Shown: positions 5,352-33,344 of the stretch, piece by piece | How positions within the stretch are numbered: position 1 is the stretch's first letter | How the letters are laid out: every line of letters starts with the position of its first letter | IMG/VR virus record: IMGVR_UViG_3300020473_000017 | Length of the DNA: 64,000 nucleotides | Reading direction: 5' to 3' (one strand) | Source of the DNA: a virus | The notes under the pieces: model-generated | Databases searched by the model: none | What the model saw: only the letters and a program-made list of their open reading frames with translations | Told to the model about the DNA's origin: nothing | Made by a program: the position numbers and the translations under genes

Positions 5352-5570
5352 CTATTTATCTGCTTTCTGTACCAAGTTATGTACAAGATCCTTTAATTCA
5401 TCTACTTCCTTTCTTAAGTCTTTAATATCTCTATCCTTTCTTCTAGCTTCATCTCTAGCTTGTTTATATGCCAAATATCCACTATCGTCAGTATTTAATA
5501 TCGCATTAGACTGCGAATCCCTGCCGAGGTTTGTGTGACCTTCAACAGGGATTAGTTCAAGTTCATCCAT
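5352..5570 (-). CDS. Hypothetical coiled-coil protein
   Basis: 72-aa ORF directly after the VrlC-like gene. Confidence 0.7.
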   Translation of the reverse strand: MDELELIPVEGHTNLGRDSQSNAILNTDDSGYLAYKQARDEARRKDRDIKDLRKEVDELKDLVHNLVQKADK

Positions 5571-5573
5571 TAT

Positions 5574-8500
5574 TTACGCAAGAGCAATTGCTCTGAAATC
5601 TTTAACTCTAGGTATGTATGGTTGCTCGTAAGCAAGAAGACTGATCTTCACTTGGAAACCATCAAACTCAGGTGCATCATCCACAGTATACTCATAATCA
5701 GTAAACGTTGTCAAGTCGTTCTGTGGAACTAATTGACCGTTATCTGGTACACCTGTACTATTGAAGAATTGGAAGTCAAGATCATCAACATTACCTGAAT
5801 ATCCAACAGGTATCAATTTATACATCAATACAATCTTAGATTGTGTCCAAGTATTAGCAGCAAGCATAACCTTAAGTCCACTGGCACTCTTATCCATTCT
5901 TGCTGCCTTAGTAATATAGTTAGCAGCACATTCTCCACCAATACCTGACGTAGGTTCGATGTTATTAATAATCTGCGCCGATGTTAAAGTAGCGATAGCA
6001 GTTATATCGACTACTGGAGATAGATGTGTTACCTCTGTCTCAAGATCTAATTCCATAGTAAAGGACTTAACATTGCTCATCCTATTAACTTCATTAAGTT
6101 GATTAGCAATAACCTTAGTCTTAGGGAAATAGTTTTCTTCATTAATTGTTACATCCGACCATGCAATATCTTTAATGAATGAAGTCTCTAATCCAGCATT
6201 TGATCCAGCAGAATCAGGACCACATGAGGTTGCTTGAGTACCTTTAACTCTACTAATAATACTACATTGTGGTTGTGTTTGATTATTAACCAATGGAGTA
6301 ACAACATCCCATGCAACGTTTTGAGAAGCAGTCATTGATGTACCACCACCAGCCATAGTTGTTAGAGCTTTCTTACCACTAACCTGTATCTTATAACTAT
6401 GTGGACTGTTAAGTGTCAAAATAGATGTATGAGTCTTGTTAATATCCGTTAATGGAATACCATTAATATTATAACACTGTACAATTGCACCAGTAGAATG
6501 TTCTTTACCATTTGTAGATCCACTAGTACCATTATGATTTCTAGGTTGAGAAGAAATAAAGTTTATTGTGTTTCCAGAAATTCCTTTATATGCAATAATT
6601 TCATCACCACTACCATCTGCAGCTGTACCTAAGATTTTAATAAATCCAGGAACTGAATCACTTACTGCGTTACCACTTGGATTTCCAGAAGTTCCATACA
6701 TTGTAGTATGGAATAATGATGCATCATCTACTGTACAACTAGTTCCTGTCAAGGTAACTCCAGATGAAAGAGTTGTATCTGGTACTTCAGAAGCTACTCC
6801 AGTCAATTCCAAGTAATTAAGAGTTGATTGCATACCATGATTACCATGGAATACTCTAATAGTATCATCCTCTGCAGTGAATTGTAGTGCATTAGGTAAA
6901 AGACCTAAGTAACCACCATTAGATTCACCAAGTTGTGCATTCTCTAGTACAAGTTTACTATTAGCTGCTGTGGTTGGTTTTGTAAATTCTGCTCTGAAAA
7001 TCTTGAACATTAAATCTTCATATTGAGAAGGTGTCCAAGTAGATGCGTTCTGTGACTTGAATAGTACACCGATATATGGCTGTTCAGATATCTTCTCACC
7101 AGCATGGGCAGCATCAATAGCATCCTTACCTAGGATAGAGATGAATACCTTATATTGGTTAGAATCTGAAGTCAATACAATAGCATGTTCCTGTCTGAAT
7201 GGAATGTATACTGGAGATGGGAATGTAAACGTAGTAGGTTTAGATGCATCTACAGATGTAAATACGTCTACAGGTTTCTTAACTACCTTAGAGAAAGGTA
7301 CAATCTTTTGAGTTGGATTACCATTAACGACAGTTCTAACATCAAGAGATACTGGAATTTCTTCATCCTTAGTATTGAAGAATATATCAATCTTAGTTAA
7401 GAATACACCACCCTCAAGAGCAGCATCTTCAATCAAGAATGTTTGTGCTAATGGGTCACAGTGTCTAGTCTCTGTAGCACTTGTACTACTGCTACTGGTT
7501 AATGTTCTAGAATCACTCATCTCTTCTGTAGTGACCTTAGCATTTCTTACAGAAATAATATCTTCTTGAGTAGTTTGATGAATACCAGATGATGAAAATT
7601 CTGCTTCAGCATTAGAATCTGAGAACCCTATTACCTTACTATCAGTTTCATCATCAGTAATTCTGAATAGTTTAGTACCAGTCTTAAATGTAAGATTACC
7701 TGCTTTATTAGGAGTATCAATAAAGAATGAAGCACTGAAACTACCTGACTTATCACTAATTAAATCTTTATTTGATACTTTAGCAATAGCACCTGAAGTT
7801 TCTCCAATAAGATAATCATTAATCTTAGGAGATCCATAGTAACTACCCTTCGCTTGATCTGCAAGAGCATGAGTATCAATATTGATGAATCCTAAGTTAG
7901 AAGTATAATCACTAGTTCCACTAATATCTGTACCGTCTAGTGGGTTAATAGAATACTGTTCATTTGGTGCAGAAACTCTAGCTTTAAATCTAAATGCATT
8001 CTGTCCCTTCTGAGTACTTACATTCCCCTTCTTAACATAAACAGTTTCACCAATCTGGAAAGGAATACTATTTGTTTTAGCATCAGTAGTAGGATCCTTC
8101 ACAAGTCCCATTATCTTAGGTGTGATTAACTTCTTAGGTAGTGCAATACCATCAAAGAATGCATAGAACTTGGTTCTTGGTTTTAATTTTTGACAAGCAA
8201 ACTCAATGTTCCTAGAACGCATAAACTGAATATGATCAACAGATACAACCTTATCTCCAAGAGATGTACTTTCTATTACTGGAGTTATCTTATATCTAAT
8301 ACCACTTCTAGTTTGTTTAGTAGTCTTAGTAGTTGTAGTAGTAATAGTTCTTGACTGTTTCTTCTTAGCACTATGCCTCCAAGCACCAACTTTCTTACTA
8401 ATACTTGTACCAGTCCAAGTAGTCTTCCATGAGTTCCACTGAATAGGAGTAAATCCATTCTGGTCAGCATTATATTCTCTGATAGTTGTTAAGAAGTTAC

Positions 8501-28272: not shown

Positions 28273-30156
28273 TTAATTATAGCTGGACTCTGGTACAACT
28301 CCCGTACCAGATAGGTTTGAACCGCTACTGATGGTGTCTTCCACAACACTTACAGTCGTATTATCTATACCTAATGTCAAATAGGTTTCACGCAAAGAAA
28401 CAAGATCATTGGATTCTGGAACTGCTGAAAGTTGAAGAATGTTACCTGATGTTATTGTGGTTGAAATTATTATGTCATTAATGACAATTTCACCCATATC
28501 ATAGTCAACAGTACCTACGTCAGCAGTACTGTATTCAAATGCACCAGTGTCTTTAATATAATAAAGTCTCAATTTACCTAAACCATCATCATTGATGAAG
28601 TAAGTATTGATTGTATCACCAGCAATTTTAAATCCTGAAGAAGAAACCGTAGGTTCTGTCGAGGTTCCTTGGTTAATTCTGTTACCATAACAGATTTTAT
28701 AGTTCACACGAGCGTTTAAATCAACTGTTACGTTCTTTCTCATCTTGAGACGAGTGATATTCGATGTAATTGATCCATCTGCACCATCAATTATACTCTG
28801 AAGTTTAGAGTATTTGAACTTTCCACCGAATTTATTGAATTCAGATCCTGTATTAAGCGCAGTTAGTGTTGCAATAACTGCATTTTGCACTTCATCTCTC
28901 AATTTACGTGTAATATTTGGATTATAGTACACAAAACTGTTCATATCGATGTATAAAATCGATGGATCAATGATTGAAGGTTGAATTGCTGCTACAGAAT
29001 ACTCTCTAAGCTTCTTCAAAATAACATTTTTCTCGGAAAGAGATAATTTATCCGCATTTTTTGGTTTGATTGCCAAAAATACCTTTCCATATTCAGGTGG
29101 AGACGCTTCTTCACCACCATAACACGCAATTGAAGCAACGTTAGGATAAATTTGAGGAACAATTGCCTCATAATCCTGCGTTGAAACTGCTCTACCGAAT
29201 GCAGAGTAGAATTTAGGCGCAGAAAACTTAATTCCTTCCTTAGATTCTGCTGGAGCACCGCCTTCTGGACGTTTATCCAGTGTAATAGTGATTCCAGAGG
29301 TCAAAGAATTCGCTTCATCATCTAAAAATGTACCAATATTAGTGAAAGTAAGCAATCCATTAGCTCCCATTCCACTAGAAGTGGTATAAGTGACGCTAAT
29401 TACATCACCATTGAGCAAATCTTTACCAATTGTACCGTCTCCGAACATAATTTCGGGTCTTTGATACTCAGATTCCTCTAAAAAGAAGACTTTTGATGTA
29501 GAATCTATCTTAGTAATGTCTGTTGCTTGTAAATAACGCTCTGTAATAGTACCAGAACTGACCTGAACCTTCATTGAGGAAGTATCTGCGTTCTGATTCG
29601 TTAGAATAAAACGTTGTCTTTCATTAACATTGCGTACAAATGTGTCTGTTAGGTAAACACCTTCATAAACTATAAGATTTGAGAAGGTTGCAATACCTGT
29701 TGTACTATCCACAGACACGATAACATCAGATGGAACAGAGAAGACGAAGTTATTATTGTCTAAACCTGTGAAATTTAATACTAATCCTTGTGAAAGTGTA
29801 ACCGTTTTTGGATATCCTTTTGTAATTACACCCTGTGCATTGGTTGTAACATTGGTTTGAACCTGAATTGTAACCGTTGCTTGTGAAGAACGAGCTGATT
29901 TTGGTGTATAACCAATCATCCTTGCCAATTTTACGACATTTTCACGTAAAACTGCGGTCTCTAGGAACCCTTCATTAACTGCAAGGTTGGCATTTACACT
30001 TGTATAGTAAGTATTATATGCTAAAGTATCAATTAAGACAGTCAATGATGACCCTTCAAAGTCATAATCACTAAACTCTGACTGTGCCTTTAGATAATCT
30101 TTAATTTGTGCCTTGATTTCGTTGAACTCAAGAGCATTGACTTGTTTAAATGCCAT
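28273..30156 (-). CDS. gp6: Baseplate wedge subunit gp6
   Basis: LEFNEIKAQIKDYL..QSEFSDYDFEGS.L..LIDTLAYNT; RAVSTQDYE; PPEYGKVF. Confidence 0.95.
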   Translation of the reverse strand: MAFKQVNALEFNEIKAQIKDYLKAQSEFSDYDFEGSSLTVLIDTLAYNTYYTSVNANLAVNEGFLETAVLRENVVKLARMIGYTPKSARSSQATVTIQVQTNVTTNAQGVITKGYPKTVTLSQGLVLNFTGLDNNNFVFSVPSDVIVSVDSTTGIATFSNLIVYEGVYLTDTFVRNVNERQRFILTNQNADTSSMKVQVSSGTITERYLQATDITKIDSTSKVFFLEESEYQRPEIMFGDGTIGKDLLNGDVISVTYTTSSGMGANGLLTFTNIGTFLDDEANSLTSGITITLDKRPEGGAPAESKEGIKFSAPKFYSAFGRAVSTQDYEAIVPQIYPNVASIACYGGEEASPPEYGKVFLAIKPKNADKLSLSEKNVILKKLREYSVAAIQPSIIDPSILYIDMNSFVYYNPNITRKLRDEVQNAVIATLTALNTGSEFNKFGGKFKYSKLQSIIDGADGSITSNITRLKMRKNVTVDLNARVNYKICYGNRINQGTSTEPTVSSSGFKIAGDTINTYFINDDGLGKLRLYYIKDTGAFEYSTADVGTVDYDMGEIVINDIIISTTITSGNILQLSAVPESNDLVSLRETYLTLGIDNTTVSVVEDTISSGSNLSGTGVVPESSYN

Positions 30157-30545
30157 TATGGTTTCAATGCTATATCGACTGAATCTTGTAAAGGTGGAAT
30201 TCCCAATATCACATAATTAATAGACACATCCAATTGGTTACGATTCTCTTCCCATTGGGTATCAATATCTATAACTGCAACCCTTGGCTCATGTAAGTTG
30301 ATAATTTCTTCAAGATTATCAGTTATTTCATTCTCAAGATCAGGACTAGCATTTTCAAATAACAGTCCTATAATGTTACCACCAAAGAAAGGATCAAATG
30401 GTTTCTCATAAAAGTTATATAATACTATATTTCTCACACTAGCCTTAATAGCTGATTCATTAGTCAGTGCCAAAACATCGTTTGTCACTGCGTTCTTTTC
30501 AAAAGTCAAGCTGAAGTCGCGGAAGGACTTCGATATAATAGCCAT
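30156..30545 (-). CDS. gp25: Baseplate wedge subunit gp25
   Basis: AIKASVRNIV...EKPFDPFFG..LLFE...EPRV; adjacent to gp6. Confidence 0.92.
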   Translation of the reverse strand: MAIISKSFRDFSLTFEKNAVTNDVLALTNESAIKASVRNIVLYNFYEKPFDPFFGGNIIGLLFENASPDLENEITDNLEEIINLHEPRVAVIDIDTQWEENRNQLDVSINYVILGIPPLQDSVDIALKP

Positions 30546-30569: not shown

Positions 30570-30577
30570 TATTTATA
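30570..30577 (-). promoter_or_regulatory. T4 late promoter TATAAATA
   Basis: Exact consensus 25 nt upstream of gp25. Confidence 0.8.
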
Positions 30578-30585
30578 CCCGTTAT

Positions 30586-30879
30586 TCAGACTTGATAGAA
30601 AGTATACTTTAAGAAGAGCTCCTGACCCTTTTTAATTGGTTTAATAGTCGTCATATGATATATCTTACCCCATCCCTGATCTTCATACCCTTTAACGCAG
30701 TTAGGGTCATCATTATGATTCACAAAACCTCCTAAAGGGGTTCTCATAATTTGTTCATCTACCACAACATGTGATATACCAAGATAGATGTTATCTGGTA
30801 TATCCTCTTTAGCAAAGATGCCTTGTCCTGCGACAGGGCTATCTTTGATGTGTAGGCACTTAGGCAATGCTTGATACAT
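30586..30879 (-). CDS. Minimal SET-domain protein (lysine methyltransferase)
   Basis: S..AGQGIFAKEDI, GFVNHNDDPNC, IKKGQELFLKY match SET motifs; start reassigned to ATG 30879, which overlaps the upstream stop (TAATG). Confidence 0.85.
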   Translation of the reverse strand: MYQALPKCLHIKDSPVAGQGIFAKEDIPDNIYLGISHVVVDEQIMRTPLGGFVNHNDDPNCVKGYEDQGWGKIYHMTTIKPIKKGQELFLKYTFYQV

Positions 30880-31457
30880 TATAATGAAAATCCTGCTTCT
30901 ATGTCTAACCATCCAGTAATGATGGTCTTTTCTAATTTCTCGTCAATAACTCCTCTATGAGTATGTGTCCATTCGGCTGGCCATATCACAGTAGCACCCT
31001 TCTTGGCAGGGATATACTTATCCTGATACTTCCATTCAGTTCCACCGTCAGGATTATCAGAAAGGTACGTCATCCATACTAGAAATCGTTCTCTATTTAT
31101 TCTCTGCATACCTCTTTCATAATGCCATGTTCTATAACCCTGATTGGGTTTATATCTCTGTATGTTAAACATTGGAGATACATGACAATCAAGTTCACCT
31201 GCTTGTGGATATGTACGATAATAATCTTTTAGACAATCCATCAAACTCAGCATATACGTGTCAAGAACTTTTTCATTCTTAGCAAGCATGGTATGACAGT
31301 GCATATCTGTAGATGTTTTACCTGTTGCCTGAAGGTGTCTCTGAGAATATAATCCGTTATATTCTATTTTTGGTAAGTAGGTACATGTTTCATAGAACTC
31401 TACTATTTTATCACATATACCTACATCTATCTCACCTTCCCAGATGAAATTATGCAT
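30879..31457 (-). CDS. 2OG-Fe(II) oxygenase
   Basis: NIQRYKP..GY..WHYE, LVWMTYL.D..GGTE, WPAEWTHTHRG, KTIITGW. Confidence 0.88.
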   Translation of the reverse strand: MHNFIWEGEIDVGICDKIVEFYETCTYLPKIEYNGLYSQRHLQATGKTSTDMHCHTMLAKNEKVLDTYMLSLMDCLKDYYRTYPQAGELDCHVSPMFNIQRYKPNQGYRTWHYERGMQRINRERFLVWMTYLSDNPDGGTEWKYQDKYIPAKKGATVIWPAEWTHTHRGVIDEKLEKTIITGWLDIEAGFSL

Positions 31458-31606
31458 TATCTGCCCTGTCCTCTATATCTCTTCTTTGCACCATTACGAC
31501 TGGTAGCAGAGAACTTACTATGTTGACCTCTACCTTGTCTTGTCTTCTTGGGAATTGCTTCCGATTTAACAGTAGTACCGAAACCACCTGCTTTTGTTTT
31601 TGCCAT
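31457..31606 (-). CDS. 49-aa Lys/Arg/Gly-rich peptide
   Basis: Hand translation MAKTKAGGFGTTVKSEAIPKKTRQGRGQHSKFSATSRNGAKKRYRGQGR; fills the gap after PAAR, TAATG overlap with next gene. Confidence 0.75.
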   Translation of the reverse strand: MAKTKAGGFGTTVKSEAIPKKTRQGRGQHSKFSATSRNGAKKRYRGQGR

Positions 31607-31608
31607 AA

Positions 31609-31893
31609 TTAACCACCTGCGAATACGTTGGGTGAACCTTCAGCAACACTAGTACATGTTGCATCCCCTATTCTACCACATCCTTTGCCATTTACAAATA
31701 CGGTTGTACTTCCTGTTGTAATTGCTACTGCATGGGAAGGACATATAGGTGCTGGTAATAAGTGTGATGTATTAACGTCTCCTTGACGAGAGATAGGTAT
31801 GTTATTGCAGAAGACATCAGGAGATCCCTCTGCTCTGGTCATTCCAGAACAATGTGAAACGTCTGCATCGCCTATTCTAGTTACTGCTGGCAT
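31609..31893 (-). CDS. PAAR spike-tip protein (gp5.4-like)
   Basis: MPAVTRIGD, GSPDVF.N, GSTTVFVNG..GRIGD, GSPNVFAG with His/Cys ligands. Confidence 0.92.
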   Translation of the reverse strand: MPAVTRIGDADVSHCSGMTRAEGSPDVFCNNIPISRQGDVNTSHLLPAPICPSHAVAITTGSTTVFVNGKGCGRIGDATCTSVAEGSPNVFAGG

Positions 31894-32216
31894 TGTTCAC
31901 TACCTCCTTGAAAATCGTGAATACTTTCTGATCCACCTATTGCAAATGGATTGTACTTAGCAGTAGCGATCCTATACATCTTCTCATGCATAGTAACTAC
32001 TTCTGCTGCTCCCTTTTCAAATTCAGGAGTTGATTCATGACGAGAAGCATAGTTCTTTTCATGTTCTATATGGTCACTTTCATCAAACCAATCAGCAATC
32101 TCTTCTTCTGGTCTGGGGTTCTCTTCTAATTCTATCATCTTTTCAGGAGGTGCATATTTGTTATCACCATTCGCTACTGGCATACTATCATGTGGGTGTG
32201 GCTTAGAGTTTTTCAT
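31881..32216 (-). CDS. Hypothetical acidic protein
   Basis: 111-aa ORF overlapping both neighbours. Confidence 0.65.
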   Translation of the reverse strand: MKNSKPHPHDSMPVANGDNKYAPPEKMIELEENPRPEEEIADWFDESDHIEHEKNYASRHESTPEFEKGAAEVVTMHEKMYRIATAKYNPFAIGGSESIHDFQGGSEQCQQ

Positions 32217-33137: not shown

Positions 33138-33166
33138 ATTATACCGAAACCCTCACATAAAGTCAA
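33138..33166 (-). promoter_or_regulatory. Sigma70-type early promoter TTGACT-N17-TATAAT
   Basis: Near-perfect consensus, 17-bp spacer. Confidence 0.8.
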
Positions 33167-33322: not shown

Positions 33323-33344
33323 AAAAAACCCCCACTAGGGGGGT
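33323..33344 (-). terminator. Intrinsic terminator
   Basis: C/G stem followed by U6 on the minus strand, just after ORF 33353-33511. Confidence 0.7.

Follow-up and report, generated by a model that had tools for sequence, protein, structure and literature searches.

A core basic protein, an oxygenase and a minimal SET-domain protein upstream of gp25 probably form a mosaic with two independent cassettes

Introduction

Do three overlapping genes of a virus encode the parts of one protein-modification circuit, or do they only share a place in the genome? The question is raised by a stretch of viral DNA of 64,000 nucleotides (IMG/VR record IMGVR_UViG_3300020473_000017, here called the window), in which the genes for a small basic protein (PEP), a 2OG-Fe(II) dioxygenase (OXY) and a SET-domain protein (SET) are packed between those for a PAAR-repeat protein and the baseplate wedge subunit gp25. 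The original prediction took the trio for a substrate/eraser/writer module, with PEP as a histone-tail-like peptide, SET as the writer of lysine methylation and OXY as its possible eraser. The identity of the three proteins and the distribution of their genes among related viruses were analyzed.

Results

Organization of the PAAR–gp25 Region

The ORFs of the window follow each other on the minus strand in the order PAAR, PEP, OXY, SET, gp25 and gp6. The features of the region are as follows:

31609-31893, minus strand: PAAR, 94 aa, PAAR-repeat spike-tip protein (gp5.4-like; PF05488, phrog_281)
31457-31606, minus strand: PEP, 49-aa basic protein, pI 12, core cyanomyovirus gene (phrog_516 / T4-GC394)
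31455-31459, minus strand: PEP stop/OXY start, TAATG overlap, putative left seam of the OXY cassette
30879-31457, minus strand: OXY, 192-aa putative 2OG-Fe(II) dioxygenase of the prolyl/lysyl-hydroxylase type, mobile single-gene cassette
30877-30881, minus strand: OXY stop/SET start, TAATG overlap, putative right seam of the OXY cassette
30586-30879, minus strand: SET, 97-aa SET-domain-only protein, predicted SAM-dependent protein lysine methyltransferase
30570-30577, minus strand: TATAAATA, T4-late-promoter-like motif in the 40-bp SET–gp25 spacer, approximately 24 nt 5' of the gp25 ATG
30156-30545, minus strand: gp25, baseplate wedge subunit, downstream anchor of a variable slot
28273-30156, minus strand: gp6, baseplate wedge subunit

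The two TAATG overlaps by which the three ORFs between PAAR and gp25 had been said to be joined were both confirmed, and the identities first proposed for the parts (a minimal vSET-like SET protein, a 2OG oxygenase of the prolyl-hydroxylase type, a basic peptide, PAAR and gp25) agreed with the Pfam and fold comparisons. In Pfam, PAAR scored 34.3 bits against PF05488 (curated cut-off 27, E 2.9e-8), and gp25 scored 36.8 bits against PF04965 (GPW_gp25; curated cut-off 27.2). The closest cultured phages were the Prochlorococcus phages P-HM1, P-HM2, and MED4-213, with gp6 approximately 75% identical to that of the window; megablast of the region against cultured phages gave zero matches. A contig of 869 nt obtained in a separate study (run X13), approximately 4% divergent, spans the 5' end of SET, OXY, PEP, and the 3' end of PAAR. 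Since the PAAR-PEP-OXY-SET arrangement is thus bridged in a different study, it is not an assembly artefact. The metatranscriptome run X20 yielded one 151-nt contig inside OXY (30902-31049), which is no guide to transcription or operon structure.

Two other observations were made upstream of this region. A 111-aa ORF (31881-32216, minus strand) overlaps the PAAR start by 13 nt; its PHROG matches are weak, and the P-HM2 gene at the same position has a different sequence and is annotated as 'toxin'. Upstream of the small-gene run leading into PAAR-PEP-OXY-SET, a GC-rich hairpin with a T-run (terminator-like; 33328-33344, minus strand) is followed by an 11/12 match to a sigma-70-like promoter (33138-33166, minus strand).

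PEP Is a Core Gene of T4-Like Cyanomyoviruses

PEP is composed of 8 K, 6 R, 8 G, and 1 E among other residues, with a pI of 12.0. Its full-length match to phrog_516 (E 1.5e-19) and a dN/dS of approximately 0.12 in its core demonstrated that it is a real protein-coding gene. With the use of tblastn, PEP was found in 442 phage records, all of them cyanomyoviruses or marine viruses, and the family forms more than 290 clusters of 44–50 aa in the protein database, with no functional name among them. PEP followed by gp25-gp6 is a synteny kept in 118 loci, and the PAAR gene stands just upstream of PEP in the window, P-HM2, and Syn9. Kept at a fixed position upstream of gp25-gp6 and under purifying selection, PEP belongs to the core gene set of T4-like cyanomyoviruses, and its expression is presumably late.

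Sullivan et al. (2010, PMC3037559) listed the gene, which they called hypothetical, as T4-GC394 in 8 of 16 genomes. It is present and unannotated in P-HM2 (L143 2321-2446) and P-RSM6 (L002 3394-3495), and no annotated feature lies beneath the PEP match in P-SSM2 (H14). Annotation and tryptic proteomics have often overlooked this universal basic cyanomyovirus protein of 45–50 aa beside the PAAR spike tip. The annotated gene PHM2_083 of P-HM2 overlaps the 3' part of PEP in another frame, and its start may have been miscalled. One candidate, a 48-aa ORF that precedes a halogenase/dioxygenase array in L138, proved not to be PEP. Searches with PEP itself returned nothing in Pfam at E ≤ 1, only its own family of hypothetical proteins in the ESM Atlas, and, for its profile against PDB sequences, solely a chance-level match to CidB (E 0.17).

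Every invariant column of the family falls within residues 19-48. The core consensus (residues 19-49) reads PKKTRQGxGKHSKYSATSRNGAKKRYRGQGR, and the invariant residues include Pro19 and the lysines K20, K21, K31, K41, and K42. Residues 2-18, including 'AKTKAGG', form the least conserved stretch, so the likeness of the PEP N-terminus to histone H3 proposed earlier does not correspond to a conserved ARTK/ARKS-like motif. PEP was equally conserved in the approximately 84% of the sampled genomes without SET in the slot between PEP and gp25. No PEP residue covaried with the presence of SET, the invariant lysines being invariant in both the SET-positive and the SET-negative class.

SET Is a SET-Domain Protein Smaller Than vSET

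In Pfam, SET scored 38.2 bits against PF00856 (cut-off 22.4, E 2.1e-9). Across 22 diverse homologs, the motifs G18-Q19-G20 and R46-T47-P48...G50-G51-F52-x-N54-H55...P59-N60-C61 and the C-terminal motif E87-L88...Y92-T93-F94-Y95-x-V97 are invariant, giving the family strings GQG, RTPLGGFxNH..PNC, and EELFLxYTFYxV. The AF2 model of the protein (pLDDT 91.8) matched 4rz0 with a TM of 0.75 and vSET (3kma) with a TM of 0.73, at a Foldseek probability of 1.00. On the basis of the profile, the GxG/NHxxPN/ELxxxY motifs, and the predicted beta-fold, SET is assigned to the SET-domain family (PF00856), and it looks catalytically intact. A longer SET ORF starting at 30912 was rejected; the conserved N-terminus of the family, MYQALP, starts at the Met of the TAATG overlap.

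The similarity to chlorovirus vSET (PBCV-1 A612L, a minimal viral H3K27 methyltransferase) noted in the original prediction held, as vSET was the best match among PDB sequences (1n3j, E 1.5e-3) as well as close in fold, and its motifs aligned with SET blocks 11-27 (with GQG) and 45-92. Both proteins are virus-encoded and consist of the SET domain only, with the GxG, NHxxxPN, and ExxxxY motifs in common. The phage protein is smaller than vSET, 97 aa versus 119 aa, and ends five residues past the Tyr of the catalytic motif, without the C-terminal segment of vSET. Unlike vSET, it is a horizontally exchanged cassette, and its host is a bacterium without histones.

The family comprises at least 7977 clusters at 90% identity and is very abundant in marine metagenomes. 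Matches in cellular genomes amounted to three among 185,579 species, two of them mis-binned cyanomyovirus contigs; the family is essentially virus-only. Its members are the smallest SET domains seen so far (93–100 aa), with intact motifs, in ocean cyanophages and at least one pelagiphage. Among the cultured phages, only P-SSM7, P-RSM6, a marine SAG virus, and the pelagiphage Kolga carry it; the gene order in P-RSM6 is PEP-SET-gp25, and P-HM2 and Syn9 are SET-negative. In an earlier survey, the gene (T4-GC716) was found in P-SSM7 only, as hypothetical (Sullivan et al. 2010, PMC3037559), and nothing relevant on SET proteins of phages or cyanophages was found in the literature searched. A phage-borne SET family of sub-vSET size is new.

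OXY Resembles Prolyl and Lysyl Hydroxylases

OXY scored 33 bits against PF13640 in Pfam (cut-off 27). All of the 28 sequences compared keep the residues H112, E114, H167, and K177, which correspond to an H-x-E...H triad with a distal Lys. The best fold matches of the structure model (pLDDT 90.2) were PBCV-1 vCPH (collagen prolyl hydroxylase), Pseudomonas P4H, PHD2, and lysyl hydroxylases; the top matches listed are all prolyl or lysyl hydroxylases except PolD at rank 14. Judged by profile, triad, basic residue, and modeled fold, OXY is a prolyl-4-hydroxylase-like 2OG-Fe(II) dioxygenase, and it looks catalytically intact. It shares the triad, the Lys, and the fold with the PF13640-type hydroxylases (PBCV-1 vCPH, Pseudomonas PPHD, PHD2, LH3, mimivirus lysyl hydroxylase), but the sequence identity to these prolyl/lysyl hydroxylases is only 14–18%. 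Pseudomonas PPHD, a P4H, acts on EF-Tu. Unlike these named enzymes, OXY is one of many paralogous cyanophage oxygenases spread over several loci.

The 2OG demethylases of the JmjC and AlkB types have the 2OG/Fe(II) double-stranded beta-helix chemistry in common with OXY. Unlike them, OXY matched no JmjC/AlkB profile in Pfam at E ≤ 1, and its gene has no conserved linkage to SET. JmjC or AlkB structures were also absent from the fold matches listed. As the fold is that of P4H, PHD, and lysyl hydroxylases, with no JmjC/AlkB among the listed matches, a role of OXY as 'eraser' is unlikely. The caution attached to the module from the beginning, that the oxygenase looked like the prolyl-hydroxylase type rather than JmjC, agrees with these fold matches.

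OXY Is Gained and Lost as a Single Gene

The exact PEP-OXY-SET trio was found only in L004 (identical to the window), L005, L027, and L028. Relatives with gp6 77–95% identical to that of the window (L006-8, L026, L030, L033, L036) are without OXY, and PEP is joined directly to SET through the same ...GATAATGTA... TAATG overlap. Since the OXY-less relatives keep the same PEP–SET junction, OXY appears as a precise one-gene indel between the TAATG seams.

An OXY ortholog with 71% identity (P0244, 191 aa) follows PEP together with two further oxygenases, without SET, in L133-L137. The identical P0244 with the same two oxygenase neighbors stands directly after gp45/gp44 in L132 (3001-4759), and the presence of one block at both places indicates that the three oxygenase genes move as a unit. 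A homolog with 53% identity to OXY belongs to a Syn9-type halogenase/dioxygenase array. Tandem dioxygenase arrays have been described in Syn9-like phages (Iyer et al. 2010, PMC2938197), and arrays of this kind were seen among the surveyed loci too. In P-SSM7, a different oxygenase lies immediately upstream of PEP.

The Slot between PEP and gp25 Has Variable Content

The window proteins were mapped onto loci sampled from IMG/VR, 47 of them fetched via SET and 80 via PEP. PEP was always followed by gp25-gp6, but its distance to gp25 ranged from 69 to 4011 bp. The 75 loci anchored on PEP had been chosen without regard to SET; they are metagenomic fragments, so that 'negative' genomes may carry SET or an oxygenase outside the fragment. 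The content of their slots was as follows:

Empty (<140 bp): 26/75 loci
Other small genes: 16/75 loci
phrog_3704 protein: 13/75 loci
SET only: 11/75 loci
2OG oxygenase: 6/75 loci
2OG oxygenase and phrog_3704 protein: 2/75 loci
SET and 2OG oxygenase: 1/75 loci

In the two-way table of SET and 2OG oxygenases, one locus had both, 11 had SET only, 8 had a 2OG oxygenase only, and 55 had neither (Fisher p = 1.0). A survey of gene neighborhoods in related genomes had been named beforehand as the analysis by which the module could fail, through SET and the oxygenase occurring independently of each other at this site; each of them occupies the slot independently (p = 1.0), and the conserved linkage was not found. 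The cargo includes several 2OG families. At least three oxygenase families have members next to PEP, among them the gene just upstream of it in P-SSM7, and this recurrence could exceed what is expected by chance at a hot spot. According to published data, 2OG-Fe(II) oxygenases are numerous in cyanomyoviruses, being present in 14 of 16 genomes (Sullivan et al. 2010, PMC3037559).

The commonest cargo other than SET was a protein of approximately 220 aa from phrog_3704 (16 ORFs in 15 loci, e.g., L053 1473-2129), labelled 'ferredoxin' in PHROGs; Pfam gave no match for it. Genes for a GIY-YIG endonuclease and for purM (AIR synthase) were also noticed in the slot in the wider set of loci (L048 1495-2535 and L044 2774-3772), which fits a recombination/insertion hot spot.

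The Position of SET Is Nearly Fixed and Its Sequence Is Exchanged

SET sits in the PEP–gp25 slot in approximately 56 of approximately 62 loci, and it ends at most 80 nt from gp25 in 56 of 57. In several lineages it abuts PEP with a stop/start overlap. The identity of SET is incongruent with that of gp6: L009 and L010 have SET 91% but gp6 only approximately 40% identical to the window, whereas in L027 and L033-36 SET is 76–78% and gp6 88–89% identical. Such incongruence points to horizontal exchange of SET into the same slot.

Outside the slot, SET adjoins nrdB in P-SSM7, 113 kb from PEP, and it stands alone in the pelagiphage Kolga (L003), in which a PEP match is absent. In L045 and L046, the upstream neighbors of SET are acidic or near-neutral small proteins. 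In L046, SET is followed by an ORF of approximately 317 aa (5546-6499) in which an SPPYYGL motif, typical of DNA amino-methyltransferases, was read from the sequence.

Putative Expression Signals

Of 122 loci, 35 had an exact copy of TATAAATA in the 120 nt ahead of gp25, in most cases at -33. In the window, the motif is not enriched relative to shuffled sequences (4 observed, 6.8 expected), and its position before gp25, alone, is suggestive. In P-HM2, the genes PHM2_081-083, spanning the PAAR and PEP locus, were assigned to the 'Late (D)' cluster, g6 to 'Late (E)' in both conditions, and g25 to E or D depending on the condition (PMC5082946 supplement). By synteny with P-HM2, late expression would be expected for the slot cargo, which would form the last part of a transcription unit immediately ahead of the gp25 promoter.

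Discussion

The trio is probably a mosaic and not a module, i.e., the core gene PEP with two independent mobile enzyme cassettes stacked behind it in an accessory-gene slot. The slot would extend, downstream of PAAR-PEP, from the PEP stop to the gp25 promoter, and would have received two unrelated single-gene cassettes, OXY in the first place and SET in the second, nearly always the last one, 20–80 nt before gp25. The TAATG overlaps would represent the seams of cassette gain and loss, with the ordinary translational coupling of a tightly packed late operon. In the infected cell, SET would methylate lysine(s) of some protein with SAM as the donor, and OXY would act on a protein by hydroxylating the side chain of a Pro or Lys. 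The two presumably act independently, and OXY not as a methyl-lysine eraser. Slots of this kind belong to the known accessory-gene hot spots of cyanomyoviruses (Sullivan et al. 2010, PMC3037559). Neither that study nor the one of Iyer et al. (2010, PMC2938197) described the PEP anchor or the SET gene, and the recognition of PEP as a fixed anchor of the slot is new.

The original prediction, in which PEP is a histone-tail-like DNA-condensing peptide of the virion, SET its writer, and OXY the eraser that demethylates or counter-modifies it, was drawn from the co-orientation of the three genes and their TAATG overlaps, from the basic, Lys-rich character of PEP, and from the resemblance of SET to vSET. 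The distribution of the genes largely refuted it. The exact trio is common to only four related contigs, SET and the 2OG oxygenases assort independently in the 75 loci, the H3-like N-terminus of PEP is not conserved, PEP is as conserved without SET as with it, and the fold of OXY is of the P4H/PHD/lysyl-hydroxylase type, with JmjC/AlkB absent among the top matches listed. Such a circuit is now highly improbable, and its interpretation as a 'phage epigenetic circuit' has been removed as unsupported. A smaller version, in which SET methylates one of the invariant lysines of PEP (K20, K21, K31, K41, or K42), with the oxygenase as an unrelated passenger, fares better and is still unlikely. Methylation would then optionally tune a peptide that is associated with PAAR or binds nucleic acids. 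The direct stop/start coupling in several lineages and the preference of SET for the slot speak for the pair, as does the complementarity of charge (median pI of 5.9 for the SET family versus 12 for PEP), and both genes would be late by synteny with P-HM2. However, 113 kb separate SET from PEP in P-SSM7, Kolga has SET without a PEP match, the upstream neighbors of SET outside the slot are acidic or near-neutral and not basic, no PEP residue covaries with the presence of SET, and homologous recombination between the conserved flanks would keep it in the slot anyway. Prediction of the SET + SAM + PEP complex, run without controls, gave a score of 0.01, which counts neither for nor against the pair.

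A target in the host has a somewhat better, if still modest, chance. SET would then modify a conserved protein of cyanobacteria and SAR11 alike (e.g., a ribosomal or nucleoid protein or a translation factor) in takeover or anti-defence, and its place in the baseplate operon would be incidental. Phages of unrelated hosts carry members of the family, also in non-structural surroundings (Kolga, P-SSM7 beside nrdAB, L045, L046, and L145); its abundance in marine metagenomes and its near absence from cellular genomes point the same way. Against this, the SET of cyanomyoviruses sits in a late-expressed structural cluster, which is an unusual place for takeover genes. Of the proteins that can be named, PEP is the likeliest single substrate of SET, at a low probability; other phage or host proteins are collectively more likely, given the SET genes found at a distance from PEP and in a pelagiphage that has no PEP. 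In view of the fixed position of SET and its frequent abutment on PEP, gene-order statistics might miss a functional link between SET and either PEP or the baseplate genes. Less probable again, and rather speculative, is a PAAR-linked PEP that is carried in the virion or injected and for which the slot enzymes act as swappable modifiers, SET methylating Lys and the oxygenases hydroxylating Pro19 or Lys. If true, the locus would be one of a 'fixed substrate plus swappable modifier' type, diversifying a spike-associated peptide.

Under the favored mosaic, the PEP–gp25 slot remains an address at which SET and OXY arrived separately. The target of SET, once found, would show a role of protein lysine methylation in a phage–bacterium system. 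Members of the SET family with 46–60% identity were also noticed in SAR11-associated DNA, namely, on a Pelagibacteraceae SAG contig (L145 4001-4279) and in Kolga (L003), in both cases with no PEP, gp25, or gp6 nearby.
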